Under the pieces are notes generated by a model, which worked only from the letters and a program-made list of their open reading frames with translations, was not told the DNA's origin and did not search any database. Positions 861 through 57,640 of a DNA stretch of 64,000 nt are shown here, in pieces. The DNA is taken from the NCBI GenBank assembly GCA_002451695.1, contig DKDC01000001.1, forward strand, positions 19,961 to 83,960. Reading direction: 5' to 3'. The stretch is from Prevotellaceae bacterium UBA6858 (GTDB lineage: Bacteria > Bacteroidota > Bacteroidia > Bacteroidales > Bacteroidaceae). Within the stretch, counting starts at the first letter, position 1. Each line of letters opens with the position of its first letter. The translations under genes were made by a program, and so were the position numbers.

Positions 861-986
861 ATTTGCAACGGCGGGAAAAAGGTCTGATATAGTTTGAATT
901 ATGTCTGATATAATTTTTCCTGCATAGGACATGGTTTTTTCAACATCCGATGTGGTTTTCGCGATTTTTGTTTTGCGCCATTGCAA
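861..986 (+). repeat. Composite intergenic repeat, copy 1 (module A only, degenerate; no palindromic core)
   Basis: ATTTGCAACGGCGGGAAAAAGG is followed by four 21-bp units at 881-964, then the tail GTTTTGCGCCATTGCAA. Homologous to the other copies listed below. Confidence 0.85.
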
Positions 987-1118
987 AATAAAAATCCGCA
1001 GCAGAACTTCGCCGTTTTTGGCAATGCCAAATGGCAAATCCCGGCACTTGAAAAATATTTTCCGCACAACCATTGTCTGTACAGCCTCTTTTTACGACAA
1101 TTAACCTTTTCCCAAAAC

Positions 1119-1132
1119 AAAAAAAAAAAAAA
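1119..1132 (+). repeat. Homopolymeric A14 tract 8 nt upstream of a near-consensus -7 box (TATATTTC, 1141-1148)
   Basis: Counted directly in the sequence. Lies about 120 nt upstream of the 1252 start codon. Confidence 0.9.
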
Positions 1133-1251
1133 CGAGTGCTTATATTTCTAAAATTATTCTTACATTAGCCTCGTGATTGCTACACGTGTTCTTAACACGG
1201 CTTTAACAATAAAGAAACAATTAACAACGCATCAATAATTAAGTATCAAGT

Positions 1252-4200
1252 ATGAAAAAGTTTACAAGAATTCTGACGCTTGTGATTGCAGTTTTTGCAA
1301 GCATCAACGCATGGGGACGCATCTCCCCGGGCGAAAGGGTTACCGACTACAGCCTGCTGAAGACCGGCGACCGCATCTTTGTGGAAGGCAAATGGGGGCC
1401 CAACAATGTTGACCTCGAAGCCGGACACTGGTTGAGTACGTACTTCCCCGCACGTAGGGCCGACAGCATTGTTGTGGCTGTGCAGGAAACCGTAGGTTCT
1501 CAAGCCGCATTCGAGCTTGAGGAAAGCGGCAGCACCTACACCATGAAGTATGCCGACGGAACCACGGAGGAACTCAAAGGCTTCTACGTGAAGAGCGCGA
1601 AGAGCGGGCTGTACCTCACCAAAGGGCAGGAGCAGGGCGTTACCTACACGTGCGACCTTCTGCTCACGGAAAACAAGACAACGGAATGGTACATCTGCAA
1701 GGCCGTTACAATGGGACAGAACCCCGACGACCCCGAGGGGGACAACATTAACATCGCCCCCGAAAACGCGGCGTTCTTCGCCTGCCTTGCAGGAGACGGC
1801 ACCGTATTGCGCCTCAACAACAACTACAAGGACGCATCGAGCACATATTTCTGCGACAAGGTGGCCTACTTCAACAACTCCACCGTATGGCATGAGATAA
1901 CCTACGCTTCCGAGGAGGACAACTCGCTCGAAGCAGTGCTTCTTGACATAGACGAGCTTTACACGCTCGCATACACCATGTCCCAGACTTTGGTTGTCGG
2001 CACAAACCCCGGCTTCTGCGATGAGAACTACTACAACGCCCTCGACGTTGCAATGGCAAGCTCGCAGGACGACTCGCAGCTCACCACGGCAGAGGCGGCA
2101 CAGACCTGCTATGACAACCTGCTCAACGCATACCTCGACATCAGCGAGAAAGGCGTTGTCCCTATTCGCGACGGATACTACTGGCTGGTGAACTGCCAAA
2201 ACGAATGGAACGCCCTTCAGGAGGGCGGCACACAGGTTGCGCTTTCCGCACAGGGCAAGGAGATTTGGTGGAACACCATCAACAAGGACAAGGCTGAATA
2301 CATCTGGAAAATCGCATTGCTTCCCGACGGCAAGTATGCAATGCAGAACCTCGGCACGCAGCAGTTTGTTGACTACGGCAGCGGCACCACACCCGTTTAC
2401 ACCTCTGTTGACTCAAGCAAGAACAACGTTGAGTTTATTGCGCTCGCCACAGCCGGCTCGTGGGGCATAAAAGCATACAACCCCACTCCCGACGGAGATG
2501 ATTCTTACATCCACTGCCGCAACCACAGCCTTGACCCGGCTACGGGTGCAAGCACATGCCTCTGGTTGCCGCGTCCGCAGGAGTTCTCGGGCTGGTATCT
2601 GCTCCAAGTTCCGCAGGACATCGTTGACAAACTTGCTCCCAAGGACGACGAGGTGGAGAAGCAGAAACTCGCAAGGGCTTTGGTTGACTCCCTCAACAAC
2701 CTCATCAGCGACGTGAAGGCAATGATCACGCCTTCGCTCGAATACGACAGGTCGAACGCCACAAGCGTCATACCAACACTCGAAGCCGCACAGGCAAACA
2801 ACTTCGCCGACTTCTTCTCGAACGCCGGCATGAGCGTTGAGCACGGCTACAGCTACGGAAACGACGGCGGCGGCTTCGCGGCACTTATAGACAACGACCC
2901 CGAAACCCACTTCCACACCACATACGGCACACAGCCCTCATGGAGCGACTACACCGACACGGGCACAGGCTACGGCTATCCCACAACCAAGCACAACCTC
3001 GGCTGCAAGCTCACACAGCCTGTGAACAACGTGTTCTTTGTATGGTACGAGCGCACCGGCAGCTACCACGACACTCCGTTGAAGATTGACCTCGAGGTGA
3101 GCAACGACGGCGAGAACTGGACAAACGTGTCCTATGGCTACAACCTATACACCGCTTCCGGTCAAAACGGCGCCGAAGTGCTTGTAGGTCCGTTCGAGTT
3201 CAACGACAACTACCAGTACGTGCGCTTCGCAACCGAAGGCAGCGCACGCGGAAAGTTCTTCAACCTCTCTGGCATGGACATCCTCACGGGCGTAACCTAT
3301 GCCAGCTCGTGCCAGTTGTCGGCTGTTGAACCCGCAACGCGAATTGCACTGTTCAACGCGCTCTCGAACGGCAACAAGCAGGCCGAGAACGACAGCGTAA
3401 GCAACATCGAAAACCTTAAGGCGGCAATCGCACAGCTCACAGACGCATACAACGCATTCGTTTCGACATTCGTTGACGTTAAGGATCTGAAAGACGTTAT
3501 CACAAAGGCAAAGAGCACTATCGAAGGAGTTGTGATAACCGAGAACACAGTAGGCACATACGACACAGCAGCCAACCCGGACGCAGTTACTTCGGCTGTA
3601 GAAGAGGCAGAAAGCCTGATTGCAAACGTGGGCTACACCCAGGATGAAGTTGACGCCGTGGCAAAGAAGATAAGCGACGCACTTGCAGAGCTCAGCACTC
3701 ACATGATTGCTCCCGACCCCACCAAGTGGTATCAGATACAGTTCGCTTCTGAAGAAGAATACACCGAGTTCAAATTCGATTCCGATGCAGAGGCATTGAT
3801 TGACCGCGTGGTTTGCGTAACCCAAGGACAAGACGAGACCACCAAAGCTCCCAAGCCTTACGATTCCGCCGAAGACGTGATATACGGTTCGGCATGGCTG
3901 CAGAGCGTTCCCGCAGAAAACGCTTGGGACGTTCCCGAACTTACATACTTCCGCTTCATCGCAGTTGGCGACAGCGGATATGTACTCCAGAACAAGGCAA
4001 CCGGCCTGTTCGTCCCCAACCTCGGCACAAGTGTGAAAGCGAACCTCAGCACCGTTCCCGGTGTGTTCACGGTTGAGTCGTTCGGACACGGATTTGTAAC
4101 GCTCAACACCCACAACCTGTTCGACGGCACGGCAAACGGCAACAACTTCCACTTCGGCAACTCATCCGATTATTCGCAATACTACATCGTGGGCTGGAAC

Positions 4201-4866
4201 AGCGGTATGTCAACCAAGTCGGCGTTCCACCTCGTTACTATTGATGAGGAAGAAACCCTTGGCAACGTGAACATGACAGGCACACGCGCCCTGACAATTC
4301 CCGAAACTCTGACTTTGGAAGGCGGAGCTAACGCATACACCGCAAAAGGAAAGGTTATCGAAGAAGACGGCACCACATACATTGCAATGGAACGCGTAGA
4401 GAAAGTTCCCGCAGGTATGCCGGCTGTAATTGTTCCCGAAGACGCAGAGGCAGCATACCTCATAAGCCTTGGCACAGACTTTGTGTCCAAAGAGGCAAGC
4501 ACCGTGGGCGTGAAAGGCACATTCGTTGCACAGACAATGCCCGACGGCTCGGCACTGCTGAGAAGCGCAGAAGACAAGTCGCTCTACTGGCAGCCACTTT
4601 CCACTGTCGGAATGAACTCCACGGCAAACGGCATCTATCTTGACGTTGCAAACATCGGACAAATGCCCGACGTTGCTAAGGATGACGCAGACCTGCTCAT
4701 TCTGGTTAAGGACTACAACTCCACCGTATCGGTTGACAAGGTTAAGACCAACGTCAGCGGCAAGCACGAAATCTACACTGTTGACGGCGTGAAACTCGAC
4801 ACCAAGCCCGAAAACCTCGGGAAAGGGCTCTACATCATCGACGGCAAAAAGGTTTATGTGCCATAA
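1252..4866 (+). CDS. Secreted 1204-aa surface protein: discoidin (F5/8 type C)-like domain, lectin-like modules, helical linkers, T9SS C-terminal sorting domain
   Basis: Signal peptide MKKFTRILTLVIAVFASINAWG. Discoidin-like segment ...ALIDNDPETHFHTTYG...YVRFATEG.... Recurrent motif YxLQNKATGLFV / YAMQNLGTQQFV. C-terminal tail ...EIYTVDGVKL...GLYIIDGKKVYVP matches the type A T9SS CTD pattern. Confidence 0.8.
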   Translation: MKKFTRILTLVIAVFASINAWGRISPGERVTDYSLLKTGDRIFVEGKWGPNNVDLEAGHWLSTYFPARRADSIVVAVQETVGSQAAFELEESGSTYTMKYADGTTEELKGFYVKSAKSGLYLTKGQEQGVTYTCDLLLTENKTTEWYICKAVTMGQNPDDPEGDNINIAPENAAFFACLAGDGTVLRLNNNYKDASSTYFCDKVAYFNNSTVWHEITYASEEDNSLEAVLLDIDELYTLAYTMSQTLVVGTNPGFCDENYYNALDVAMASSQDDSQLTTAEAAQTCYDNLLNAYLDISEKGVVPIRDGYYWLVNCQNEWNALQEGGTQVALSAQGKEIWWNTINKDKAEYIWKIALLPDGKYAMQNLGTQQFVDYGSGTTPVYTSVDSSKNNVEFIALATAGSWGIKAYNPTPDGDDSYIHCRNHSLDPATGASTCLWLPRPQEFSGWYLLQVPQDIVDKLAPKDDEVEKQKLARALVDSLNNLISDVKAMITPSLEYDRSNATSVIPTLEAAQANNFADFFSNAGMSVEHGYSYGNDGGGFAALIDNDPETHFHTTYGTQPSWSDYTDTGTGYGYPTTKHNLGCKLTQPVNNVFFVWYERTGSYHDTPLKIDLEVSNDGENWTNVSYGYNLYTASGQNGAEVLVGPFEFNDNYQYVRFATEGSARGKFFNLSGMDILTGVTYASSCQLSAVEPATRIALFNALSNGNKQAENDSVSNIENLKAAIAQLTDAYNAFVSTFVDVKDLKDVITKAKSTIEGVVITENTVGTYDTAANPDAVTSAVEEAESLIANVGYTQDEVDAVAKKISDALAELSTHMIAPDPTKWYQIQFASEEEYTEFKFDSDAEALIDRVVCVTQGQDETTKAPKPYDSAEDVIYGSAWLQSVPAENAWDVPELTYFRFIAVGDSGYVLQNKATGLFVPNLGTSVKANLSTVPGVFTVESFGHGFVTLNTHNLFDGTANGNNFHFGNSSDYSQYYIVGWNSGMSTKSAFHLVTIDEEETLGNVNMTGTRALTIPETLTLEGGANAYTAKGKVIEEDGTTYIAMERVEKVPAGMPAVIVPEDAEAAYLISLGTDFVSKEASTVGVKGTFVAQTMPDGSALLRSAEDKSLYWQPLSTVGMNSTANGIYLDVANIGQMPDVAKDDADLLILVKDYNSTVSVDKVKTNVSGKHEIYTVDGVKLDTKPENLGKGLYIIDGKKVYVP

Positions 4867-5024
4867 GCCGGACAACAGATAATACGCAAACATCTGCCGC
4901 ACCCAAGGGAAACCAGACAATGTTTTCTGCGGATGCGGCAGATTTAATGCTCCATCAATATTGTGCGGAAACTTTCCGCATTGATTAATAAAAGGATGCC
5001 AGACATCCGCATTCAAACAAAACG

Positions 5025-6455
5025 ATGAACAACATTATACTAAAAACCATAGCGGCGGCAGCCCTTTGTTTCGGTATGGTTAACGCCAATGCCGACAACG
5101 TAAGGATAAGGCTTGTTACGTCGCAAAGCCCCGGTGCGCAAATCACATTCAATTTGCCGTCGAACACCTACGTTAGCGTTGATTGGGGAAACGGGGAAAT
5201 ACAAAGCTATCGCGACAGCGTGGTAACCGGCACGCTTGCAGGAGATACGATAACTGTTACGGGCAACACCAAGTTTACAGGCTTCGGCTGCCATTCGCAG
5301 CACGTGAAATGGATTGACCTTTCGGAAGCCCCCAACCTGCTTTCGCTCGACTGCTCCGACAACGAACTTACAGAACTCTCGCTCACGGCCAATACCGCAT
5401 TGCAGGAACTCGACTGCTCGGGCAACAAGCTGAAAAGCCTCTCGGCGGTAAAGGCACAGGCACTCCGCAACCTCGACTGCGCCGGCAACGACCTAACCAC
5501 CCTCAACATTGTGCCAAACAACAGCCTTGAGTACATCAACATAAACGACAACCAAATCTCATCGCTCAACGTAAGGACAAAAAACAAGCTGCGCTCGCTG
5601 TGGGCGGCAAACAACAAGCTCACCCTCTTGAGCTTCTCCAACTACGCCCCGATGCAGTCTCTCGTATGCCCGCAAAACGACATTGAGATTGTGCAACTTT
5701 CAAACAAGGCGCAAATGCAGGACGTATGGATTGCAGGAAACAAAATCACCGACTTCGACCTGTCGGAAAGCGCAGAGCTGAAAACCCTTGACGTAAGCAA
5801 CAATGAACTCGATACATTGGCGTTGAGCAAGGCAATCACATCGGAAAATCCCATGCAATACATCAATTGCAGCGACAACCACCTTTCGTACCGTTGTTTC
5901 TACAATCCCGACATCACCAAGAAGTATGTTTGCGGAAACCAGTTTGTGAACTTCTCCCCCGACACCGTTGCCGCAGGAGTATATCTTGACTTCTCGCGCT
6001 TCATGATAAACGGCTCGGGCAGAAAGAACGGCATCCTCACTCTCTACAACGGCGAAGACGACACGCAGCTCAAATCGGGCAGTTCGGCAAAAGCTGGCGA
6101 CTACACCATGGTTGCCGCCGCAGGGCGCGTAAAGTACTGGAAAAACTTCCCTGCCGCATACCTCACCGTTACCAGCAAAGACTATCCCGACCTGAGCATA
6201 CGCACGAGCAACTATGTGGTTTATGACGAGGGAATAGCCAACGGCATTGAAAGCGTAACGGCAGACAAGGCCGGCATGACCGTACTTCGCGAAGGCAGAA
6301 CCATAATCCTCATGGCTTCCGCCGAACAGCCGGCAAGCGTTGTTACAACCGACGGCGTTACCGTATGGAAAGGCACGGTGGGCAGCACCCCTGTGGAAAT
6401 CAGCGTTACGCCCGGAGTGTATATCGTAGGACAGAAAAAAATCGTAGTAAACTAA
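5025..6455 (+). CDS. Leucine-rich-repeat protein with T9SS C-terminal sorting domain
   Basis: Signal peptide present. About 10 tandem 22-aa LRRs (LxxLDCSxNxLTxL). C-terminal ...TVWKGTVGSTPVEISVTPGVYIVGQKKIVVN resembles a T9SS CTD. Confidence 0.8.
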   Translation: MNNIILKTIAAAALCFGMVNANADNVRIRLVTSQSPGAQITFNLPSNTYVSVDWGNGEIQSYRDSVVTGTLAGDTITVTGNTKFTGFGCHSQHVKWIDLSEAPNLLSLDCSDNELTELSLTANTALQELDCSGNKLKSLSAVKAQALRNLDCAGNDLTTLNIVPNNSLEYININDNQISSLNVRTKNKLRSLWAANNKLTLLSFSNYAPMQSLVCPQNDIEIVQLSNKAQMQDVWIAGNKITDFDLSESAELKTLDVSNNELDTLALSKAITSENPMQYINCSDNHLSYRCFYNPDITKKYVCGNQFVNFSPDTVAAGVYLDFSRFMINGSGRKNGILTLYNGEDDTQLKSGSSAKAGDYTMVAAAGRVKYWKNFPAAYLTVTSKDYPDLSIRTSNYVVYDEGIANGIESVTADKAGMTVLREGRTIILMASAEQPASVVTTDGVTVWKGTVGSTPVEISVTPGVYIVGQKKIVVN

Positions 6456-6465
6456 CGGAAAAGTC

Positions 6466-9033
6466 ATGAACATTTTCAAATATACCATATCACTGCTCGC
6501 CGTGGCGTTGCTGCCAACCGCAAGCCCCGACACCTATGCGCAAAGCAATATCACGGACACGGAATCCCCTGTGATTGTCCCGTCAACGCCCTCACGCAGC
6601 ATATCATACCGCAAAGCTCTCGGCAAAGTGAAAATCGCGGCGAATGTAGACTACACCATAAGCAGTGACGCCGACTGGTGCACCGTTACCAAAAACGATG
6701 ACGGCTTCAACTTCCGCGTTTCCGCCAACATGACCAAAGCCGCACGTGTGGCGAAGGTTAAGTTATACAATGCAGAAAACGACATCACACGCTACGTGTC
6801 AATTTCGCAAGAAATGGCAGAACTCGAACAGTATGCGGAAAACCCCAACACAAGCGTAAAGCCAAAAGGAGCTTCCGCACCGGGAACCTCGTCGCTTCTG
6901 CGCACCATCGACGGCTACACAACCACATACTACGACTACTCCGCCGCCACGGGAACTGTTACGGAAAGCAGTCCTCTCGACCTTGACTACGCTTTCAGCG
7001 GTCAGCACATCGACAAGATAACCTATGTTCCCAACGGCACTTCACACGGCTACATGGGCAAGGCAAAGGTTTCTTACAAAAAGGTTGGCGAGGACGGCTA
7101 CACCGACCTCGGGACATACAACCTCACCACCGACGGCACCACCGTTGAGATAGACCTCGCCCAAGGCGGCGCAGACAATGTTGACACGTTGCGCATTTCC
7201 GTATGGGAAGGACTTGACAGCGGCAACGGCAACGAAATGTTCGGCTGCGCCGAGATGCAGTTCGCCATGTCGCTCAACAATTGTGCGCCCTATAACATCT
7301 TCGCCGATGATCTGCTCACCAAGCTGCGCCCGGAAATCACTGCCGATGTGGTTGACACTATCAGCAACCCGTTTGTAAGCGCACTCGCCGAGGAGCTGCT
7401 CAACAACACCTACGACACCAAGTACCGCGCAGCACGCTACAACTGCCTGCCGCCGGCATCATCGGTTGGCGACAGCCTGCTCACAGGCAAGAACTACGAC
7501 ATATTCGAGGGCGTTACCGGCATAAAGGTCAACCCCGGCAAATTCGCCGTTGTCGTTGCCGGACTTAAGCCCGGCGTGGACGCAAGCGTGTATGTAACGG
7601 CATACCGGCCCAAGAGCGGCAACACCGGCCCGTCATACAAGCTCTACACTCTCAAGAACGGCATGAACGTGATTAACTACACCGCCGACAGTGCCGGACT
7701 TGCATACATCAAATACAATTCCGACGTTCCCGAGAAGCACGACTCCATCGGCGTGCACTTCATCAACGGCGTTCAAAACGGCTATGTAACCTCAAAGATG
7801 TCGAACGACGAAATCACCGACGTGCTGAAAAAGGCGCAGTATATGTGCATGGACATTCTCGGCGACAGAGTGCACCTCGTGTTCGAGGGCAAATCCCTGC
7901 TCAAATACACCATTGGCAGATACCGCCAGCTGGTAAACGTTTACGACACCATAATCAGTTGGGAACACCGCGTGCTGGGACTTGAGAAATACAAAAAAGT
8001 TCCAAAGAACCGCACGCTGTTCTACGTAAACTACGACTACTTCATGTATCAGACAGGCTTGGGAGCTTCGGCAAAATACGATGTTACCGACATTCTCGAC
8101 CCGCGCAAATTCCTCACCAAGAGCCTTTCCACAGTATGGGGCGTGGCCCACGAATGGGGACACCAGCAGCAAAGTCCGTACTACACATGGGGAGGCATGG
8201 CCGAGGTTTCTAACAACATATTCTCGAGCTACGTCCTCATACACATCGGACAGAACACCGTGGGCTTCCTTGTGAACAACTTCAAGCAGGGCTACAGGGA
8301 ATATTTCCAGGAAGACTATTTCGCCACCCACGACTCCATAAGCCCGCAAAGGCAAAAGGCATACGCGGCGGCAAGCAAATACGCCTACTCCCCCAAGCTT
8401 CAGGAGGTGTTCCTTGCAATGAAGGACGCCAGGATACCTTCGCGTGCGGAAGACCCGCTCCACGCGGCAAGCTTCATCGAGCATTCCGACAACCTGTTCG
8501 CAAACCGCCTTACGAGCGTTTACGAAATAGGCCACTACTTTGAGTACGAACTCGGCAACAAGGACATCTTCCCCGACTTCTTCGAGTCTATCCGCCACAC
8601 CGAGACAGGCACGAACAAATACGAGCTTATCGCCGCCGTGCAGAAAGGCAAGAGCGCGCGCCTTGCGGTGCTTAAGGAACTCTATCCCAACAGCGTTTGG
8701 GTGAAGAACAACTATGTTTACGAAAAGTCGAAGTCAAACGAGAACGACGCCTCATACATCCTGAACTTCATCTACAAGATGTCAACCGCAACGGGCTACA
8801 ATATGTTCCCATACTTTGAGCAGTGGGGCTACCTGCGCCAGATTGCGACCTACACCAGCGATTACGGCGACCACTACTATTGCCTCACCAAGGATATGTA
8901 TGACGAGTTCAAGGCCGATATGGACGCGCGCGTTGAAAGCGGGGAGCTTAAGGTAATGTCCGACGAGCTTATCCGCACCATTTCGAGCTACCCGATACCC
9001 ACCGACACTCCCGTACTAACAGTTCCCAACTAA
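6466..9033 (+). CDS. Secreted M60-like (enhancin-type) zinc metallopeptidase with N-terminal BACON-like and discoidin-like domains
   Basis: Signal peptide present. HEWGH...E zinc motif (VAHEWGHQQQSPYYTWGGMAEVSNN). N-terminal segment DWCTVTKNDDGFNFRVSANMTKAARVAKVKLY is BACON-like. No T9SS CTD seen. Confidence 0.75.
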   Translation: MNIFKYTISLLAVALLPTASPDTYAQSNITDTESPVIVPSTPSRSISYRKALGKVKIAANVDYTISSDADWCTVTKNDDGFNFRVSANMTKAARVAKVKLYNAENDITRYVSISQEMAELEQYAENPNTSVKPKGASAPGTSSLLRTIDGYTTTYYDYSAATGTVTESSPLDLDYAFSGQHIDKITYVPNGTSHGYMGKAKVSYKKVGEDGYTDLGTYNLTTDGTTVEIDLAQGGADNVDTLRISVWEGLDSGNGNEMFGCAEMQFAMSLNNCAPYNIFADDLLTKLRPEITADVVDTISNPFVSALAEELLNNTYDTKYRAARYNCLPPASSVGDSLLTGKNYDIFEGVTGIKVNPGKFAVVVAGLKPGVDASVYVTAYRPKSGNTGPSYKLYTLKNGMNVINYTADSAGLAYIKYNSDVPEKHDSIGVHFINGVQNGYVTSKMSNDEITDVLKKAQYMCMDILGDRVHLVFEGKSLLKYTIGRYRQLVNVYDTIISWEHRVLGLEKYKKVPKNRTLFYVNYDYFMYQTGLGASAKYDVTDILDPRKFLTKSLSTVWGVAHEWGHQQQSPYYTWGGMAEVSNNIFSSYVLIHIGQNTVGFLVNNFKQGYREYFQEDYFATHDSISPQRQKAYAAASKYAYSPKLQEVFLAMKDARIPSRAEDPLHAASFIEHSDNLFANRLTSVYEIGHYFEYELGNKDIFPDFFESIRHTETGTNKYELIAAVQKGKSARLAVLKELYPNSVWVKNNYVYEKSKSNENDASYILNFIYKMSTATGYNMFPYFEQWGYLRQIATYTSDYGDHYYCLTKDMYDEFKADMDARVESGELKVMSDELIRTISSYPIPTDTPVLTVPN

Positions 9034-9154: not shown

Positions 9155-9253
9155 ACGCCGGAGCATACCAGAAAGCAAAATTTTCCGCAAGCCGTTGACT
9201 GACAACAAATTGAACCGTTTTTGAAAATTTTCACAAGCATCTGCTTTTCAAGT

Positions 9254-9474
9254 ATTTGCGACAGTGAAAATTATGTCTGATGTAGTTTGAATTATGTCTG
9301 ATATAATTTTTTCTACATAGGACGTAGTTTTTCCAATGTCCCTTATAGTTTTCGGGATGCTTCGAAAAGAACAAGCGTTCTTGGTTTTGCGGGAATTGTA
9401 GTGGCGCAATTTCTTGAATGATTAATTACTGCGTATTTGTGCGGCGTATTGCATACGCCCCTACGGCGGTGCAA
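9254..9474 (+). repeat. Composite intergenic repeat, copy 2 (module A + core-less arms + one palindrome)
   Basis: Four 21-bp units at 9274-9357. Core-less arms TTGCGGGAATTGTAGTGGCGCAA at 9387-9409. Palindrome GGCGTATTGCATACGCCCCTACGGCGGTGCAA ends at 9474. Confidence 0.9.
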
Positions 9475-9565
9475 TACACTGGTTATTTGATATTTAATAT
9501 TCTTTACACGCCATTGCCCGGATTTTATAAGTCCACTATTCCGAACTCACGTATGTAATTTTTCG

Positions 9566-9573
9566 TAACTTTG
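9566..9573 (+). promoter_or_regulatory. Bacteroidetes -7 promoter box TAACTTTG upstream of the TPP riboswitch
   Basis: Exact match to TAnnTTTG, about 25 nt upstream of the riboswitch. Confidence 0.55.
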
Positions 9574-9591
9574 CACTCGGAAAGCAAACTG

Positions 9592-9675
9592 CTTTCTAAG
9601 GGGTGTCCGTCTTTTTGGGCGGTCTGAGATCATACCCTATAACCTGATCCGGGTAATGCCGGCGTAGGTAGGTGC
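9592..9675 (+). promoter_or_regulatory. TPP (THI-box) riboswitch
   Basis: GGGGTGTCC...CTGAGAT...ACCCTATAACCTGATCCGGGTAATGCCGGCGTAGG matches the conserved THI-box core (CUGAGA ... ACCUGAUCnGGnUAAUGCCnGCG). A small hairpin AAGGATT/AATCCCTT follows. Sits directly upstream of the TonB receptor gene. Confidence 0.9.
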
Positions 9676-9724
9676 AAGGATTATAATCCCTTCTTAATTT
9701 ATTATCAAAAAACAAAGGTGTCAA

Positions 9725-12073
9725 ATGAAGAATTTGATTTTAACCTCCTCTCTCGCCATTGCGGCTGCGGCAATTTTGCCCGCGAGCGCCGATGACTCAA
9801 TACGCAGCGAGAAATTGCAGGAAGTGGTGGTGAAAAGTGTGCGCGCACAGAAAAACGCGCCGTTTGCGGTGGCAAACATCAAACAAGCCGAACTCCACAA
9901 CTTTTCAAGGAGCGGCAAGGAACTTCCGTTCCTCTTCGCCAACACTCCGGGCATCACGGCGTGGAGCGAAAACGGTGTGGGCACAGGCACAACCGCAATG
10001 AGAATACGCGGTGCGGCAGGAAGCCGCATCAACGTAACCCTCGATGGCGTGCCTCTCAACTCGCCCGAAGACCAAACCGTGTTCTGGGCAAACATGAACT
10101 CGTACGGCTCGCTCCTCAAATCGGTGCAGATACAGCGCGGAATAGGCACGAGCACAAACGGCGACGGCGCGTTCGGCGGAACAATATCCCTGCTCACAAA
10201 TATGCCGAGCCGTGAGAAAATGCTTGAAGTGACAGGCTCATTCGGAAGCTACAACACATACAATGCCGGCGCGAGCTTCTCTACCGGGTTGCTTTGGAAC
10301 CACCTCATCTTTGACGGCGCGTACCACGAAACAGGCACAGACGGCTTCATACACGGCACTAACGGACGTTCCGGCTCATATTACGGCGGACTGACGTGGT
10401 TTGGCGACAAATTCACGCTGCGCTACAAGAACATTGGCAACTTCGAGAAAACCGGTCAGGCATGGAGCGGCATCACTGCGGGAAACGACGACGCAAGCCT
10501 TATGTTTCAGGGAATACGCTCCTACAAGGATATGTACAAGCACGGCCTTGGCAGGTTCAACTCCCTGTACGAGGGTATGGTTTTCGATTCAGGCAACTGG
10601 ACATTCCCGCAGGACGAAAAAGGGAACTTCCAAACCTACCGCTACAAGCTCGACAACGGCAAATATTGGGACAGGACAACCGACAACTTCTATCAGAACC
10701 ACAACATCCTCTCAGGCACGTGGATGCCAAACGAACACTGGAGCCATAACGCCGCACTCCACTACACCTACGGCTACGGTTATTACCTCGAGTTCCGTCC
10801 CCAGAACAAATTCAAGAAATTCGGACTTACGGCAACCGACGCGGAGGGCAACTCCATCACGAGAGCCGACTTCGTGAGAAAGAAAGGACTTACGCAGAAC
10901 AACTACGGCGCACTCTACAACGTGAACTTCAAGAACGACAAATGGGACGTTATCGGCGGCATGAACATCACGCAGTTCCGCTGCAACCACTTCGGCAAGC
11001 TCAAATACGTTTCAAACGTGGGGCAGGTTGAGAACTTCACAGGCTACAAGTATTACGACTCCGACGCACGCAAGGACGACTACTCCGCATTCGCAAAGGC
11101 TACATACCACGTGTCCGGCTTCCTCGACGTGTTCGGCGACCTGCAATACCGCCACGTGTTCTACAAGACAAGCGGCCTGAACGACAGATTCTACGAGAGC
11201 GACAACAGCAAGCAGTTCCTCGACATTCACAAAAAATATGATTTTTGGAATCCCAAGGCGGGAGTCAGCTTCCACCAAAGCGGACACAACGCATACTTCT
11301 CCGTGGCTTACGCAGGCCGCGAGCCGGAGCGCAACAACTTCACCGACAACGGCAGCTATCCCGCGCCCAAGGCGGAACACATGACCGACTATGAGCTGGG
11401 CTACAACTACGACGGCGGAAACTGGCACGCGGGAGTGAATTTCTATTATATGGACTACAAAGACCAGTTTGTGCAAACCGGCCAGCAGAGCGACATTGGC
11501 GAAAACCTCACGACAAACATAGACAAAAGCTACCGCCAAGGCGTTGAGATTTCGGCAGACTGGAGCCCGCTTTCATGGCTCACCGTTGCCGGCAACGCCG
11601 CACTCTCGCAAAACAAAATCAAGGACTTCACCGAGTATGTGGACAACTGGGACGGCAACGCCGAGACAAAGCATTACGGCAAATCCACCCTCTCGTTCTC
11701 GCCGTCGGTCATCCTGAACGGCTTCCTCAACTTCCACTGCGCCGGCTTCGACGCAACATGGCACACGAACTTTGTGGGACGGCAGTATCTTGACAACACC
11801 GAGAACAAAGACCGCTCGCTGCCCTGCTATTCCCAGACAAACGTGAACATGAACTACACCCTCGACACCAAAAAGCTTTCGCTGGGCGTAAAGCAGGTTG
11901 TGTTCGGCCTCAGCCTCAACAACATTTTCAACCGCCGCTATGCAAGCAGCGGCTGGGTTTACAGCGCGGTGAGCAAAAGCAGCGGCTACGACCTCGACAA
12001 CCGTTACTACCAGCTCGGCTTCATTCCCATGGCGGGCTTCACCGCAATGGGAAACATAACTTTGAGGTTCTGA
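9725..12073 (+). CDS. TonB-dependent outer-membrane receptor (putative thiamin uptake; riboswitch-controlled)
   Basis: Signal peptide present. Plug-domain motifs (VVVKSVRA..., GIT...RIRG, NVTLDGVPLN). C-terminal beta-barrel ends ...GNITLRF. Confidence 0.85.
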   Translation: MKNLILTSSLAIAAAAILPASADDSIRSEKLQEVVVKSVRAQKNAPFAVANIKQAELHNFSRSGKELPFLFANTPGITAWSENGVGTGTTAMRIRGAAGSRINVTLDGVPLNSPEDQTVFWANMNSYGSLLKSVQIQRGIGTSTNGDGAFGGTISLLTNMPSREKMLEVTGSFGSYNTYNAGASFSTGLLWNHLIFDGAYHETGTDGFIHGTNGRSGSYYGGLTWFGDKFTLRYKNIGNFEKTGQAWSGITAGNDDASLMFQGIRSYKDMYKHGLGRFNSLYEGMVFDSGNWTFPQDEKGNFQTYRYKLDNGKYWDRTTDNFYQNHNILSGTWMPNEHWSHNAALHYTYGYGYYLEFRPQNKFKKFGLTATDAEGNSITRADFVRKKGLTQNNYGALYNVNFKNDKWDVIGGMNITQFRCNHFGKLKYVSNVGQVENFTGYKYYDSDARKDDYSAFAKATYHVSGFLDVFGDLQYRHVFYKTSGLNDRFYESDNSKQFLDIHKKYDFWNPKAGVSFHQSGHNAYFSVAYAGREPERNNFTDNGSYPAPKAEHMTDYELGYNYDGGNWHAGVNFYYMDYKDQFVQTGQQSDIGENLTTNIDKSYRQGVEISADWSPLSWLTVAGNAALSQNKIKDFTEYVDNWDGNAETKHYGKSTLSFSPSVILNGFLNFHCAGFDATWHTNFVGRQYLDNTENKDRSLPCYSQTNVNMNYTLDTKKLSLGVKQVVFGLSLNNIFNRRYASSGWVYSAVSKSSGYDLDNRYYQLGFIPMAGFTAMGNITLRF

Positions 12074-12074
12074 C

Positions 12075-12662
12075 ATGGATTTTCTTGCCGCACACTGGCT
12101 TGACATACTCACAACAATCCTCGGGCTTGTTTACATCGCGCTCGAATACCGCGCAAGCATCGCGCTGTGGGTTGTGGGGATAATCATGCCCGCCCTCGAC
12201 ATTTACCTCTACTACAGCCACGGGCTTTACGGCGACGCCGGAATGGCGGTTTACTACACCGTGGCTGCCGTTTACGGTTACGCTGCCTGGAAGTTCGGCA
12301 AGAAAGACGGCGGAAAAGGCGGGGAGATGCCCATAACGCACTTCCCCAAGAAACTTGTCCTTCCGGCGTTCCTGTTCTTCGCCGCAGCCATGTGGGCGAC
12401 CCACTACGTGCTGGCCAACTACACTAACTCCACCGTCCCGGTGCTTGACAGTTTCACCAATGCCCTTAGCTTTGTGGGGCTGTGGGCGTTGGCGCGCAAA
12501 TACATCGAGCAGTGGTTCGTCTGGATTGCGGTTGACATCATCTCGTGCTACCTCTACATCGACAAGGGAATACCTTTCAAGGCCGGGCTTTACGGCCTGT
12601 ATGTTGTGATAGCCGTCATGGGCTACATCAAATGGTGTAAAATGATGCTGGCAAGGCAATGA
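12075..12662 (+). CDS. pnuT: PnuC-family transporter (PnuT-like, putative thiamin transporter)
   Basis: 195-aa polytopic membrane protein with a PnuC-like W-rich helix pattern (WVVGI..., WALARKYIEQWFVWIAVD). Starts 2 nt after the TBDR stop, within the riboswitch operon. Confidence 0.7.
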   Translation: MDFLAAHWLDILTTILGLVYIALEYRASIALWVVGIIMPALDIYLYYSHGLYGDAGMAVYYTVAAVYGYAAWKFGKKDGGKGGEMPITHFPKKLVLPAFLFFAAAMWATHYVLANYTNSTVPVLDSFTNALSFVGLWALARKYIEQWFVWIAVDIISCYLYIDKGIPFKAGLYGLYVVIAVMGYIKWCKMMLARQ

Positions 12663-12663
12663 C

Positions 12664-12703
12664 AAAAAACTCCCCGGCGCAAATGCCGGGGAGTTTTTGT
12701 TTT
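12664..12703. terminator. Bidirectional rho-independent terminator between convergent pnuT and serB
   Basis: Stem ACTCCCCGGC / GCCGGGGAGT flanked by A6 on the left and T5GT4 on the right. Confidence 0.8.
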
Positions 12704-12720
12704 ATTGCGGAACTGTCCCT

Positions 12721-13965
12721 TCAGAGTTTGCCCAGTTCCCCGAGATAGCTGTCCTTGAAGCCGAGGAAATAAAGCACTCCGTCAAGCCCGATGTTGCTTA
12801 TTGCCTGCCGGGCGTTGGCTATCACCTTCGGTTTGGCGTGGAAGGCAATTCCGAGGCCCGCCTCCGAAATCATCGGCAAATCGTTTGCCCCGTCGCCCAC
12901 GGCTATTGTCTGCGCAAGATTTATTTTCTCAACCTGCGCAATGAGCCTGAGCAGCTCCGCCTTCCGTGTGCCGTCAACAATCTCGCCCACATACCGCCCC
13001 GTCAGCTTTCCGTCCTCACCAATTTCAAGTTCGTTGGCATAAACATAGTCTATATTGTATTTGCGTTGCAGGTATTCGCCGAAATAGGTGAACCCGCCGC
13101 TGAGAATGGCGATTTTGTAGCCGCATTTTTTCAGCACCGACATTAGCCTGTCAGTTCCCTCTGTTATAGGCAGGTTTTCGGCAATGTCCCTCATCACTTC
13201 CACGTCAAGCCCTTTGAGCAATGCCACCCTCTGCATGAAGCTCTCCTTGAAGTCAATCTCCCCGCGCATGGCACGCGCCGTGATTTCCGCCACCTTGTCG
13301 CCCACTCCGTTGCGCTTCGCCAGCTCGTCAATGCACTCCGTCTGTATCAGCGTGCTGTCCATGTCGAAGCATATAAGCCTGCGCATACGCCGGTACATAT
13401 CATCGGTCTGGAACGAGAAGTCTATTCCGAACTCGGATGAAAGTTCCATAAGCTCCTTCTGCATTTCGGGATAGTTTCTCGGCGTTCCGCGCAAGGAGAA
13501 CTCTATGCACGCCCTGACGTTGCGCTTGGGGTGCACAATGCTCATGCGCCCGGTGAGGCGCAATATGGAGTCGATGTTCAGCCCCTGCGCCGCAATCACC
13601 TTTGCCGCCGCCGCAATCTGCCGCGCCGAAAGGCTGCGCCCAATAAGCGTGAGGATGTAGCGGTTCTTACCCTGCTGGTTCACCCAAGCCTCGTATTCCT
13701 CGTCGGTAACAGGGTCAAAGCCAATCTGCACATTGAGTTCCGAAGCCTTGAACAGCAGTTCCTTCATCACCTGCCCCGCCGAAACGTCGTCTATCCTTAT
13801 GAGTATTCCGAGCGACAGCGTGCTGTGTATGTCGGCCTGACCTATGTCGAGAATGTTTGCGCCATAGCGCGCAAGAACCTCCATCGCCGATGCCGTGAGC
13901 CCCGGCCGGTCCTTGCCCGTAATCCTTATGAGGATTTGCTCCTCCTTTGTAGATTTGTTCTGCAT
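12721..13965 (-). CDS. serB: Phosphoserine phosphatase SerB with N-terminal ACT domains
   Basis: HAD motifs ICFDMDSTLI and AVGDGANDLPM. ACT-like N-terminus ILIRITGKDRPGLTA. Start moved to MQNKSTKEEQ (13965) because the upstream extension of the ORF has no homology-like features. Confidence 0.85.
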   Translation of the reverse strand: MQNKSTKEEQILIRITGKDRPGLTASAMEVLARYGANILDIGQADIHSTLSLGILIRIDDVSAGQVMKELLFKASELNVQIGFDPVTDEEYEAWVNQQGKNRYILTLIGRSLSARQIAAAAKVIAAQGLNIDSILRLTGRMSIVHPKRNVRACIEFSLRGTPRNYPEMQKELMELSSEFGIDFSFQTDDMYRRMRRLICFDMDSTLIQTECIDELAKRNGVGDKVAEITARAMRGEIDFKESFMQRVALLKGLDVEVMRDIAENLPITEGTDRLMSVLKKCGYKIAILSGGFTYFGEYLQRKYNIDYVYANELEIGEDGKLTGRYVGEIVDGTRKAELLRLIAQVEKINLAQTIAVGDGANDLPMISEAGLGIAFHAKPKVIANARQAISNIGLDGVLYFLGFKDSYLGELGKL

Positions 13966-14192
13966 GATATAATAATATATGCGCGAATTTAGTGTTTTAT
14001 CACAACACAAACAAATAATGCCGCCCCGCCTGCCCGCCGAAAGCAGTCCGGCTTCGCGCCTTTGGCTGTGCTGCGCAAATTCTCCGAGTCCGTTTCCGCC
14101 ACAGGCACGCAAAGCGTCCGATTTTCAAAACAGTTTGATTTTCAAAGCATTAACCCAAAATTATTATCTTGTATATGTTATTGTAGTTCAAC

Positions 14193-14297
14193 CACTTGCA
14201 GCGGCGCAAAAAAGGTCTGATATAATTTTTCCTGCGTCTGATGTAGTTTTTTCCACATAGGACATAGTTTTTGCGGTGTCCTATGCAGTTTTTGCGG
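14193..14297 (+). repeat. Composite intergenic repeat, copy 3 (module A only)
   Basis: CTTGCAGCGGCGCAAAAAAGG plus four exact 21-nt units at 14214-14234, 14235-14255, 14256-14276 and 14277-14297. Confidence 0.9.
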
Positions 14298-14447
14298 CAC
14301 ACACAGACGCGCCCTCTCTTGTAACGCCATTGGCATGGGAAACGCATTTATTATATCGTTTGCGGGGCGTGTTACATCTTTTATATATTGTGCCACAAAT
14401 GAAAAAGAAAAAAGTAGTACTTTTGCACATAATGCGTAATCCGACAG

Positions 14448-14894: not shown

Positions 14895-14931
14895 GCCCGC
14901 CAGACAAAAGCATACAGGGACACAGAAAATC

Positions 14932-43511: not shown

Positions 43512-43790
43512 TCCACCGCCGTAGGGGCGTATTGCATACGCCAAATATGCGCGGATTTGCAATGCTGCAACGGCGGTTTGCGATGCGGTTCATGCAGATG
43601 CGTACAGGGCGTATGCAATACGCCCCTACAAATGGCGAAAAACCTTAATCGCCCATCCTTTCCCAAACACCGCGAAAATTACATTTGAGGAGGAAAAACT
43701 ACATCGGACGTAGGAAAAATTATTTCAGACATAATCCAAACTACATCAGACCTTTTTTCTCCCCTGCGCAATGCTTTGAAAAACAAACCG
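43512..43790 (-). repeat. Composite intergenic repeat, copy 9 (reverse orientation, module A + long module B)
   Basis: Module B at 43512-43640 (palindromes at about 43520-43542 and 43606-43629). Four units at 43669-43752. Left flank extends to about 43790. Confidence 0.92.
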
Positions 43791-43875
43791 TTACAAAACA
43801 CTGCAACAATTTGCCAACTCTTTACAAATCAAAAGATTAGCTTTGGGATGCACGAGCGCCATTTGCCCGAACCGG

Positions 43876-51939: not shown

Positions 51940-52153
51940 CAGTTTTTTCTTTTCTGCATAATAAGACTTAATTTATAACGCACGCTTTTATTACATATTG
52001 CATCCGCAGGGAACATATAACACCAAAAATCCCGCAACACACAGGCATTGCGGGATTAAGTCCTTATAACACGACCGCATTAAAAGCGGAACTTCACGTC
52101 TTTAAGGATAAACGCACCGCCACAAAACACACAATACAATATCATCCAAAGGA

Positions 52154-52320
52154 TTGCGTTGCCGTATGGGCGTATGGCATACGCCCATACAAACGGCGCA
52201 AAACCCCGAAAACTACATCAGACATAAGAAAAACTACGTCCTATGTAGGAAAAACTACATAGGACGTAGGAAAAATTATATCAGACCTTTTTCAGCCCTT
52301 TGCAAACCTTTGAAAAACAA
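52154..52320 (-). repeat. Composite intergenic repeat, copy 10 (reverse orientation, module A + single 48-bp palindrome)
   Basis: Palindrome TTGCGTTGCCGTATGGGCGTATGGCATACGCCCATACAAACGGCGCAA at 52154-52201. Four units at 52204-52287. Flank extends to 52320. Confidence 0.95.
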
Positions 52321-52441
52321 AAACTTACATTTTTACTGTAAAACCAAGGCAAGTTTCTGCAAATCAAAGAATTGCACAACTTTATCCGTGTTGGGTGCAA
52401 TCGGGAACGGCATGGACTTTACGGGTTGCAGGTAACGGCAA

Positions 52442-55537: not shown

Positions 55538-55565
55538 TATTTATATTGCGTAAGCCCCAAGTTTT

Positions 55566-57296
55566 TCAAACAAGCTTTGCGGTCCACGCCGCCACTTCGT
55601 CAACCGATGGCCTTACGGTGGAGAGTTTGTATTTCTTGATTATCTCGCCTATCTGCATCTGTATTTTCTGCGGATTAACGTCCTTCATGTCAGCAACCGT
55701 GTTGTAACCAGCTTTCTGAAGAATGGGGACAATTTCCTCCGCCACGCCGAGAGCCGTGTATTTGTCGGCGGAATCGCGCTGCGGCTTTGCCTCGGGACGC
55801 ATTTGGGGGAACAGCAGAACTTCCTGAATTGTTGTCTTGCCCGTCATGAGCATCACGAGTCGGTCTATGCCTATGCCGATGCCGCTTGTGGGGGGCATTC
55901 CGTACTGCAGGGCGCGCAGGAAGTCCTGATCAATGACCATTGCCTCGTCATCGCCCTTGTCGGCAAGGCGCATCTGCTCCTTGAAGCGTTCCTCCTGGTC
56001 TATCGGGTCGTTAAGCTCGGAGTAGGCGTTTGCAAGCTCTTTTCCGTTTACCATAAGCTCGAACCTTTCGGTAAGCCCCGCCTTTGAGCGGTGCATTTTG
56101 GTGAGCGGCGACATTTCCACGGGATAGTCGGTGATGAACGTGGGCTGTATGTAAGTGCCCTCGCAGAACTCGCCGAAAATCTCGTCTATCATCTTGCCCT
56201 TGCCATAGGTTTCGTCAACCTCCTCGAGGTTGAGTTTTTTGCAAACTTCGCGTATTTCGTCCTCGCTCTTGCCTTCGAGGTCGTAGCCGGTTTTCTCCTT
56301 TATCGCCTCAAGGATGGGCAGACGGCGGTAAGGTGCTTTGAAGCTCACAATATTGCCGTCGATTTCGCGCTCGGGCTTGCCGTTGACCGCGATGCAGACC
56401 TTTTCGAGCAGCTTTTCGGTGAACGACATCATCCAATTGTAGTCCTTGTAGGCTATATAAAACTCAAGGCACGTGAACTCCGGATTGTGGTTGCGGTCCA
56501 TGCCTTCGTTGCGGAAATTCTTGCCAATCTCGTAAACCCCCTCAAAGCCGCCCACGATGAGACGCTTCAAGTAAAGTTCGGTGGCTATACGCATATACAT
56601 ATCCACATTAAGCGCGTTGTAGTGGGTTATGAACGGGCGCGCGCTCGCGCCGCCGGGAATGCTCTGGAGCGTGGGGGTTTCAACCTCGGTGGCGCCTATG
56701 GCGTTCAGCTCCCTGCGGATTGTGTCTATCACCGCAGCCCTCTGCACGAATGTCTCCTTCACGCCCTTGTTCACTATGAGGTCAACGTAACGCTGCCGGT
56801 AGCGCAATTCGGCGTCGTCAAAGCTGTCGTACGTCTTGCCGTCCTTTTCCTTCACCACAGGAAGCGGCTTGAGGCTCTTCGAGAGAAGCTTCAGCTCCTC
56901 GGCATGAACGGAAATCTCGCCGGTCTGTGTGCGGAACACATAGCCTTTCACTCCCACAAAGTCGCCGAAATCGAGCAGACGCTTGAACACCACGTTGTAC
57001 AGGTCCTTGTCTTCACCGGGGCAGATGCCGTCGCGGGTAACGTAAACCTGCACCCTGCCCTTGGAGTCCTGAAGCTCGATGAAGCTCGCCTTGCCCATTA
57101 TGCGGCGGCTCATCATACGGCCGGCTATGCATACACGGCGCGGATCGGCGTTTTCGTCAAAGTTTTCCTTTATGTCTGTTGAGAAAGCGTCCGTGGGATA
57201 TTCTTCGGCAGGATAAGGGTCAACGCCCAATTTCCTCAGTTCCGCCAAACTCTCGCGGCGGTTGATTTCCTGCTCACTCAAATCTAATACGTTCAT
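55566..57296 (-). CDS. lysS: Lysine--tRNA ligase (class II)
   Basis: Start set at MNVLDLSEQEINRRESL. Class II motifs FRNEGMDRNHNPEFT and GIGIGIDRLVMLMT. Confidence 0.93.
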   Translation of the reverse strand: MNVLDLSEQEINRRESLAELRKLGVDPYPAEEYPTDAFSTDIKENFDENADPRRVCIAGRMMSRRIMGKASFIELQDSKGRVQVYVTRDGICPGEDKDLYNVVFKRLLDFGDFVGVKGYVFRTQTGEISVHAEELKLLSKSLKPLPVVKEKDGKTYDSFDDAELRYRQRYVDLIVNKGVKETFVQRAAVIDTIRRELNAIGATEVETPTLQSIPGGASARPFITHYNALNVDMYMRIATELYLKRLIVGGFEGVYEIGKNFRNEGMDRNHNPEFTCLEFYIAYKDYNWMMSFTEKLLEKVCIAVNGKPEREIDGNIVSFKAPYRRLPILEAIKEKTGYDLEGKSEDEIREVCKKLNLEEVDETYGKGKMIDEIFGEFCEGTYIQPTFITDYPVEMSPLTKMHRSKAGLTERFELMVNGKELANAYSELNDPIDQEERFKEQMRLADKGDDEAMVIDQDFLRALQYGMPPTSGIGIGIDRLVMLMTGKTTIQEVLLFPQMRPEAKPQRDSADKYTALGVAEEIVPILQKAGYNTVADMKDVNPQKIQMQIGEIIKKYKLSTVRPSVDEVAAWTAKLV

Positions 57297-57438
57297 ATTT
57301 GCGCTGTAATGTGATTTTACCTGCAAAATTACTAATTTCTTTCCGATACGCCCCAATTTGGCGGCATTCATCTGACAATTGCCACCGCCGCCCCATGCTC
57401 CTTATGACATATCGCGGGAAGCGCATTTCAAGGGGCAA

Positions 57439-57640
57439 GAATTATGTCTGATATAATTTTTCCTACGTCCGATGTAGTTTTTCCTACATCAAATGTATTT
57501 TTCCGGGTGTTCGGCAAAGGGCAATTGACTTGCGTTTTGCGCCATTTGCCGAACGGTGCAAATACTGGTTAATAGGTTACTGTATATATGTAGGGGCGTA
57601 TTGCATACGCCCTGCACGCCACCGCATGAACCGCATCGCA
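57439..57640 (+). repeat. Composite intergenic repeat, copy 11 (5'-truncated module A + core-less arms + half module B)
   Basis: Three units at 57445-57507. Core-less arms TTGCGCCATTTGCCGAACGGTGCAA at 57537-57561. GTAGGGGCGTATTGCATACGCCC at 57590-57612 followed by CACGCCACCGCATGAACCGCATCGCAAA. Confidence 0.9.

Follow-up and report, generated by a model that had tools for sequence, protein, structure and literature searches.

The bacterial interspersed mosaic elements (BIMEs) of Escherichia coli are extragenic clusters of repetitive extragenic palindromes (REPs) that carry a GTAG head, alternate in orientation, are joined by conserved linkers, lie between transcription units and vary between strains in their number of REP pairs. 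In BIME-1 (RIP), the long linker contains a site for the integration host factor (IHF), and BIME-2 consists of amplified REP pairs. REP- and BIME-type repeats have been studied almost only in Proteobacteria. Here, we analyzed a stretch of 64,000 nt from Prevotellaceae bacterium UBA6858 (assembly GCA_002451695.1, contig DKDC01000001.1, positions 19,961–83,960; hereafter the window), in which a composite intergenic repeat occurs at 10 loci and is accompanied by one solo palindrome. The element is composed of three modules, namely a left module, an array of four 21-bp units and 0–3 inverted REP doublets. We interpret it as a genus-specific, BIME-like mosaic element with a DNA-level mode of action and a location between transcription units, a reading to which we give a slightly better than even chance. 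Its known part is the REP; its new part is the array with core flips and species-specific cores. A REP found across phyla is joined to a new module in a lineage of the Bacteroidota.

The elements of the window share the properties listed above for the BIME clusters of E. coli, and one long linker likewise resembles a protein-binding region, which is here a prediction from the sequence. At the sequence level, the architecture of the clusters is that of BIMEs. The elements differ from the E. coli BIMEs in that the long linker consists of the left module and a four-unit array of 21-bp dyad sites, for which E. coli has no counterpart, in that REPs of this clade never occur without an array, and in their Bacteroidota host. 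With the REP/REPIN systems of REP-associated tyrosine transposases (RAYTs) they have in common the GTAG head, the GC-rich imperfect palindrome and the doublets with outward heads that fold as one long hairpin, and other organisms carry the identical REP both beside and within Y1-transposase genes. However, instead of being independently dispersed, the doublets of this genome occupy a single fixed position within a larger element, and about 0.7 Mb of DNA sampled from the clade yielded no RAYT gene.

BrickBuilt of Porphyromonas gingivalis is also hosted by a member of the Bacteroidales, is strictly intergenic and present in tens of copies in one lineage, and contains an internal head-to-tail repeat of about 20 nt between unique leader-like and tail-like parts. 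Its units, however, are 23 nt long (AGACCATAGTATCCTCTCATATG), non-palindromic and present in 1–23 copies, whereas the units described here measure 21 nt, are dyad-symmetric, always number about four and have individual identities. The IS5-type terminal inverted repeats of BrickBuilt (GAGACCTTTGCA and TGCAAAGGTCTC) are not enriched in the window, and the two elements show no sequence similarity overall. Identity with BrickBuilt was thus ruled out by unit length, sequence, symmetry, copy-number behaviour and terminal repeats. The BOX elements of Streptococcus pneumoniae and the Correia/NIME repeats of Neisseria are further modular, dispersed intergenic repeats with few box types, including one of variable number, and they similarly reach high copy numbers and a few percent of the genome. 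Their sequences are unrelated to the present ones, they are thought to act largely via RNA structure or promoter creation, and they are not known to contain a REP/RAYT component or a phased dyad array.

Composition of the element and its recurrence in the window

A repeat search of the window yielded families of 12–13 copies for the 21-bp part and several families for the palindrome part; the 27-nt palindrome had no match in 100 shuffled sequences. With a sequence-only Infernal model and three local nhmmer profiles, built from the left flank with the array, from REP-A and from REP-B, we located the ten array starts that are given with the other coordinates in Table 1. The arrays of the window reached 64–92 bits with the Infernal model, compared to at most 23 bits for chance matches, and their pairwise identities range from 65 to 88% with a mean of 77%. 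Every copy listed in the original prediction, which had been made from the letters of the window, was found at or a few bases off its predicted position, and the proposed dispersed, non-coding and strictly intergenic family with point and indel differences is borne out, not least by more than 80 further copies outside the window in three related representative genomes and several strains. A 330-kb JGI contig matches the window with 100% identity and an independent ENA contig with 99.96%; therefore, the repeats are no assembly artefacts, and an assembly duplication had rightly been denied. If the left modules are included, about 2.9 kb (4.5%) of the window belong to elements, values that replace the former figures of 2.1 kb and about 3%. 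All 10 intergenic gaps of more than 300 nt hold an element, and the element-free gaps measure 130–190 nt.

The motifs of the left module were derived from an alignment of 52 full-length copies and their flanks. This module, about 100 nt long, adjoins the array on its left and carries conserved motifs at fixed spacing (consensus ..AAAT..GCGyAA-N5-TTGAtt..CA.aa..tT..(~18 nt)..tgTAAg..tTTGttTTTCAg..g.TTGcAA..Gg.c.AAAAAAGG). The original prediction had missed this module; the conserved element begins about 85–100 nt further left than proposed. The array itself contains four 21-bp units in nearly all copies. Since each unit has its own consensus, the array is not a variable minisatellite but a fixed four-unit structure in which every unit has an identity of its own. 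A unit comprises a 15-bp dyad core, CTAYRTC-N-GAYRTAG, followed by a T5–6 tract. With starts at array positions 19, 40, 61 and 82, these tracts are phased exactly by 21 nt, so that sites and T-tracts recur every two helical turns.

Among 44 arrays, single 15-nt cores were found as exact reverse complements of each other within the constant T-tract frame. In unit 2, the core TTATGTCTGATATAA (n = 21) is replaced in this way by TTATATCAGACATAA (n = 4), and unit 3 displays two such pairs, CTACATAGGACATAG (n = 6) and CTATGTCCTATGTAG (n = 3) as well as CTACATAGGACGTAG (n = 4) and CTACGTCCTATGTAG (n = 3). Flips are also apparent at orthologous positions, since units 2 and 3 at the site of copy 5 have the same orientation in the window and in the related locus L092 and are both flipped in the related contig L110. 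Each site keeps its 7-1-7 dyad after the flips. A dimeric DNA-binding protein would tolerate such changes, which are also those that quasi-palindromes undergo through template switching or conversion from inverted copies.

Searches with the array module returned no match in Rfam, in plasmid and phage collections (distant blastn), in the literature searched or in BrickBuilt. A literature search with the element's own sequence strings gave one chance match, and none of the papers found on MITEs (miniature inverted-repeat transposable elements) of Prevotella describes the element. The array and the left module together are thus, as far as these searches extend, a new and previously undescribed component. 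The novelty originally suspected for the whole repeat holds for this half, without a match in anything searched, and is lost for the palindrome half, which is of a known kind.

The REP module and the host range of the array

The palindrome consists of GTAG followed by GGGCGTAT-KGC-ATACGCCC and possesses an 8-bp GC-rich stem and a 3-nt loop. REP-A reads GTTTTGCg..AaTT-GTAG-GGGCGTATtGCATACGCCC and continues into the conserved tail TgTACgCcaCCGCatgAACCGCAcCGCAAAC; REP-B is the inverted REP-A palindrome and ends in CCCCTAC-gGcGGcGCAA. GTAG stands ahead of REP-A as well as REP-B in a consensus built from 18 doublets, and the REPs in third position of a cluster are without GTAG. The REPs form inverted doublets with their heads outward, in which REP-A pairs with REP-B in the fold of single-stranded DNA. 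The order is always array, short variable linker and (REP-A, REP-B)n with n = 0–3, where the tails of REP-A and REP-B and the linker between pairs are conserved and n differs among orthologous sites and among strains. Copies with a single palindrome are collapsed doublets: the site of copy 5 has one palindrome in the window, one doublet in L110 and two doublets in L092. The single palindrome of the original consensus, GTAGGGGCG...CCCCTAC, does therefore exist, albeit as the collapsed form of a doublet, and the long copies hold two inverted palindromes and a conserved spacer.

The exact 23-mer GTAGGGGCGTATKGCATACGCCC of the REP is present in at least 120 metagenome loci with GC contents of 31–70% and unrelated flanks, and in 31 IMG/VR contigs. 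Among the metagenome matches listed, 17 contain exact pairs with outward heads, only one contains an array, and six (L129, L179, L181, L237, L210 and L156) carry homologs of Y1 transposases (Pfam Y1_Tnp, RAYT-like). In L129, one REP is located about 20 nt upstream of the Y1-transposase gene (674–1297), another lies in frame within it and more follow after it, in L179 the gene is split by a REP, and in L181 a REP abuts the gene. Insertion of a REP within the tnpA-REP gene is a hallmark of TnpA-REP subclass 2.4, which occurs in Cyanobacteria, Bacteroidetes and other phyla (PMC6006769), and a survey of tagged REPs from 2013 lists for the Bacteroidetes only CGTC-type and no GTAG-type repeats (PMC3733652). 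Judged by the GTAG head, the inverted doublets and the position of the identical 23-mer beside and inside RAYT-like genes elsewhere, the palindrome that had been called REP-like and unrecognised is a true and widespread REP, and this half of the element belongs to a known system.

The array is distributed differently. A scan of genome collections with an array 18-mer gave, among the matches listed, multiple matches in three metagenome-assembled genomes (MAGs) only, and the profiles likewise found real copies in these three alone. One of them, CAVCON01 (L012-L095), is 91–93% identical to the window, the second, Prevotellaceae bacterium UBA6398, about 85%, and the third is a "Bacteroidaceae" MAG of the Hadza gut. 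Single 18-mer matches in other phyla were dismissed as chance, since their profile scores of at most 23 bits compare to 64–92 bits for real copies. The same applies to IMG/VR, where the first 100 of at least 120 18-mer matches were re-checked with the model and were all due to chance, with the remaining 20 outside this re-check. Homologs of a PpiD-like protein encoded next to the element range from 92% identity down to about 50% in named Paraprevotella and Prevotella, and at loci where this protein is 58–80% identical the element is absent or present as remnants only. The array family is therefore confined to one uncultured, genus-level clade of the Prevotellaceae. As a side observation, CAVCON01 is labelled "Oscillospiraceae bacterium" in GenBank, which is probably wrong, or else the bin is chimeric.

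Within the clade, the cores are species-specific. The 201-kb contig L110 shows 80–83% nucleotide identity to the window and is colinear with positions 2–656 and 9552–28489. At the sites of copies 2, 3 and 4, its arrays have the left motifs of the window type (TGTAAG..CTGTTTTTCC..TTACGAA..GCC-AAAAA) and four 21-nt units ending in TTTTCG as in the window, but a different core (ATACAAGGCACTTAT / ATAAGTGCCTTGTAT) that is found neither in the window nor in 111 other loci examined. At the site of copy 5, L110 has a window-type array and a REP doublet. Other cores are present in L111 (CAATGTCTGACATCG and the perfect palindrome CTATGTCTGACATAG), in L112 (ATAGGTCGGACTAAT) and in L116, where an ordered series of 5–6 units (TAGGTCGGACCT, three AATGTCCGATATT, GATATGCCTTATAT and CGACATC) recurs at three loci. 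None of the variant-core arrays of these four is accompanied by REPs. One ordered set of unit types is common to all arrays of a genome, and another species has another set, also where the gaps are orthologous. The segment of site 3 that cannot be aligned is 345 nt long in the window and 346 nt long in L110, and the arrays of the two share one register. The species-specific cores may be due to in-place homogenisation by gene conversion, to repeated re-insertion into nearly saturated permissive gaps or to co-evolution with a trans-acting factor.

What sets the family apart is its density, its exact phasing and the concerted evolution of the array as opposed to a REP that is identical across phyla. 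With phased and dyad-symmetric sites that flip in place, and cores that are uniform per genome but different between sister species, the array is a tractable natural system with a bearing on the homogenisation of dispersed repeats, the rearrangement of palindromic DNA and a possible role of such repeats in nucleoid organisation or the insulation of transcription units in gut anaerobes.

Variation between strains and competing explanations

We compared seven sites in strains with 90–100% identity (L113, L114 and L118–L122). The arrays are present at 7 of 7 sites, and the REP part and adjacent genes vary. Absence of arrays was confined to relatives whose neighbouring protein is 58–80% identical, and none of these provided a clean, usable empty site, as element-free relatives are too diverged for defining the ends. 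The REP at site 3 is absent in the window, and one is present in L119. At site 9 (window 52109–52200, L113 10959–11708), a DUF5025 gene lies between the array and ruvA in L113, L114 and L117, where the window has a REP palindrome; L113 and L114 belong to the species of the window (95.6% identity), and L117 is more distant. A gene for a BspA-type leucine-rich repeat (LRR) protein (22359–23999; window 22229–24384 compared to L119 11369–11662), located left of copy 5, is absent in L119, in which gdhA is directly followed by the element.

Whole islands are found as well. In L120 (2166–3196) and L121 (1352–3376), site 3 contains an island of 1–2 kb with conserved ends and different gene content; both versions carry two homologous small open reading frames (ORFs) of unknown function, and L121 has an extra DUF4417 gene. 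On either side of the island lies a direct repeat of about 85 nt of array; the right one begins exactly at the first core and alone keeps the REP. In the window, part of the island's left end persists as a remnant after the array of copy 3. No recombinase is encoded in or beside the islands, no target-site duplication is present at the site 3 boundaries, and no second location of the island was found. Between copies 1 and 2, an 8.4-kb segment of three genes (1252–9033; a lectin-like protein of 1204 aa, an LRR protein and an M60/BACON peptidase) is absent from L110, where secA is directly followed by the riboswitch operon. Within the species, this segment is not polymorphic and was carried by 8 of 8 strains retrieved. 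With islands bracketed by arrays and with REP and gene variation at the sites, the elements mark gene gain and loss, and they probably mediate both. In practical terms, they indicate hot spots of such changes at the strain level, and short-read assemblies of these genomes will likely break at them.

For a BIME-like element, these patterns suggest the following mechanism. The REP doublets are hairpin repeats of the RAYT type, a kind that Y1 (HUH) transposases bind and process in single-stranded form; on the time-scale of strains they are gained, lost, amplified in tandem and collapsed locally, and a RAYT may play a role in this genome. The array would be a phased and intrinsically bent, putative platform for the cooperative binding of a dimeric, sequence-specific protein, in parallel to the IHF site in the long linker of BIME-1 of E. 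coli. The arrays would be old residents of inter-operon spacers that evolve in concert within a genome, possibly homogenised by gene conversion, leaving each species with its own core set; the quasi-palindromic cores invert in place, and the copies would serve as portable homology, that is, as recombination substrates where gene islands insert or delete. We further infer a possible insulating or topological role and effects on neighbouring genes.

Several points weigh against this reading. A RAYT gene was found neither by motif search nor by tblastn in the window and the clade loci that make up the sampled DNA. Moreover, the REPs are never free-standing in the clade and sit exclusively to the right of a type-1 array, at a set distance (window and 49 related loci, with exceptions at locus ends); this fixed placement is unlike that of classical REPINs, and the REPs could be inert passengers. 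The T-tracts hold one strand orientation in most copies, a bias that a model of symmetric double-strand binding does not need and that hints at a strand-specific process, e.g. transcription or lagging-strand events. Lastly, the species-specific cores could stem from repeated transposition bursts of different master copies and not from gene conversion.

Such bursts are part of an explanation that we regard as improbable, in which the element is a conventional non-autonomous MITE with an internal tandem repeat (BrickBuilt/MITEPgRS-like) that is mobilised in trans by a DDE transposase of the IS5 or IS1182 type, and the cores reflect successive master copies. The family is indeed dispersed, intergenic, of high copy number and restricted to one lineage, and every copy of a genome has the same ordered unit types, as a master copy predicts. 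In addition, the left flank and first unit (TTTGCAAAGG...GGTCTGA) loosely resemble the IS5-type terminal repeat TTTTGCAAAGGTCTC of ISNme1 and BrickBuilt, the stretch from array to REP lies between the arms of a weak inverted repeat (TTGCAAnCGG / CCGnTGCAA), and a degraded insertion sequence (IS) lies beside a copy in L006. However, the conserved left module is located outside the putative terminal repeat, and conserved sequence extends past the only candidate inverted repeat. The IS5-type terminal-repeat pattern is not enriched (6 matches with at most 2 mismatches versus 5.6 expected, one of them in an element), and neither length, sequence nor symmetry relates the units to that of BrickBuilt. 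Target-site duplications were not seen, the seven sites of the 90–100% identical strains showed no presence/absence polymorphism of the array, and no sign of MITE-type transposition emerged from any analysis of these elements.

A transcribed element that acts as a 3′-UTR stabiliser, a terminator module or a multi-copy small RNA through hairpins of unit pairs and REP doublets is unlikely, too. REPs of E. coli are reported to influence mRNA stability and termination (PMC3733652 and PMC3479197), which would be in line with such a function. The full composite folds far better than shuffled sequences (z = -5.1), each hairpin-capable core is followed by a U-run, and most copies are co-oriented with the upstream gene as judged from inspection of the gene layout. 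Yet the opposite strand folds equally well (z = -5.2), as any nest of inverted repeats would do, and RNAalifold on the 44 arrays gave a weak GU-rich hairpin of -6.3 kcal/mol with 0 compensatory pairs. The orientation of the elements relative to their neighbours is mixed, and in the same inspection 3 or 4 copies were antisense to both. Genes upstream keep strong intrinsic terminators of their own ahead of the element, and those downstream have their canonical TAnnTTTG promoters on its far side; a Bacteroidetes promoter (TTTG-N17-23-TAnnTTTG) does not recur within the elements. An Rfam search of the window at gathering thresholds returned only 2 tRNAs and a thiamine pyrophosphate (TPP) riboswitch, and a permissive search of positions 20150–20650 only chance-level snoRNA matches. 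Above all, the core flips destroy any fixed pairing between particular units. We consider them the decisive point against an array that behaves like a structured RNA.

Two narrower candidates were rejected along the way. A conserved hairpin between units 2 and 3 was ruled out, as it shows no covariation and the units flip independently, and an assignment of the units as sigma-70 or Bacteroidetes -7 boxes, or of the left module as a sigma-54, extracytoplasmic function (ECF) or FNR-type site, was discarded by eye due to unsuitable spacing.

The gene islands raise the question whether the arrays are attachment or landing-pad sites of a site-specific recombinase, with the dyad cores as recombinase sites and small cassettes moving in and out between operons in the manner of a dispersed integron. 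The island of L120 and L121 between direct array repeats with its right repeat starting exactly at the first core, the segment between copies 1 and 2 that L110 lacks, the gains and losses of the LRR and DUF5025 genes abutting elements, and the inversion in place of cores and unit blocks would all fit. On the other hand, there is no recombinase gene in or next to the islands, the site 3 island occupies one site only, and recombination between two sites cannot invert a single 15-bp core. Moreover, ordinary homologous recombination between repeats of 100–300 bp every 5 kb explains both the deletions and the duplications. We consider the landing-pad explanation quite doubtful. Little credence is also due to the idea that the arrays are platforms for a fast-evolving, genome-encoded DNA-binding protein or recombinase matched to the cores of its species, forming chromosome-wide, integron-like cassette landing pads with RAYT-type REPs as secondary colonists, although such a pairing, if true, would produce shared cores within a genome and different cores at orthologous arrays of sister species.

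Coordinates of the copies and neighbouring features

Table 1. Elements of the window with their modules, strand and means of detection (positions in nt of the window)
Feature	Coordinates	Strand	Left module and array	REP part	Detection
Copy 1	770–1000	+	left module ~770–856; array 857–964	REP-less scaffold GTTTTGCGCCATTGCAAAA	nhmmer, profile 1–108, E = 8e-30; R1 model, 89.6 bits
Copy 2	9165–9495	+	left module; array 9250–9357	degenerate REP-A head 9398; inverted REP-B 9425–9479	nhmmer, Infernal
Copy 3	14105–14300	+	left module; array 14190–14297	without REP	nhmmer
Copy 4 (full-length reference)	20183–20560	+	left module 20183–20267; array 20268–20374; variable linker	REP-A 20400–20472 (GTAG head 20415); conserved spacer; inverted REP-B 20463–20540	nhmmer, Infernal
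Copy 5	24169–24430	+	left module; array 24254–24360	single collapsed palindrome 24380–24406	nhmmer
Copy 6	29646–29930	-	distal array units 29853–29930, inverted	REP-B 29670–29747; REP-A 29736–29810	nhmmer; Infernal model matches both strands
Solo palindrome GCGGCGTATTGCATACGCCC	30189–30215	.		without GTAG head	repeat family D12
Copy 7	39140–39510	+	left module; array 39226–39333	degenerate REP-A/REP-B doublet 39338–39487	nhmmer, Infernal
Copy 8	43505–43860	-	array 43670–43775; left module to ~43860	REP-B 43505–43581; REP-A 43572–43645	nhmmer, Infernal
Copy 9	52156–52400	-	array 52204–52311; left module	single palindrome 52164–52190	nhmmer
Copy 10	57439–57648	+	truncated array (profile positions 40–108) 57439–57507	REP-A 57575–57648	nhmmer, Infernal

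Of the REP part of copy 1, only the outer arms TTTTGCGCCATTGCAAAA remain. The sequence at 29676–29931, which had been counted as two copies, is the single minus-strand copy 6; the inversion of its distal units was judged against the intact minus-strand array of L119 and L121. At the solo palindrome, the orthologous regions of L006 and L095 hold a degenerate form. The arrangement of copy 8 is also found in L113 and L114, and copy 10 is kept in L113. At the orthologue of copy 6 in UBA6398 (L006, ~3950–4900), a degraded IS and a run of N adjoin the element, and the N-terminus of the ORF there resembles the IS5/IS1182 type (DUF772) by eye only.

The genes next to the elements are ordinary chromosomal ones, namely secA, an M60 peptidase gene, a gene for a TonB-dependent receptor behind a TPP riboswitch, a serB-like gene, coaX, a ppiD-like gene, gdhA, aroC, yqeY, ruvA, lysS and ilvC. 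The riboswitch (9589–9685, plus strand; Rfam RF00059, 57 bits) precedes the TonB-dependent receptor and a PnuC-family transporter, which look like a thiamine-uptake operon. Copy 2 is located upstream of the promoter of this operon, TAACTTTG, which lies just to the right of the element. A 63-nt periodic repeat at 5338–5507 in an LRR protein gene stems from the leucine-rich repeats that this gene encodes and does not belong to the intergenic family. Two adjacent paralogs of the FtsZ/tubulin family (30716–32032 and 32051–33409, both on the minus strand; 438 and 452 aa) are followed by an ftsA-like gene; their DNA is 72–80% identical over stretches, and such a tandem duplication of ftsZ is unusual.

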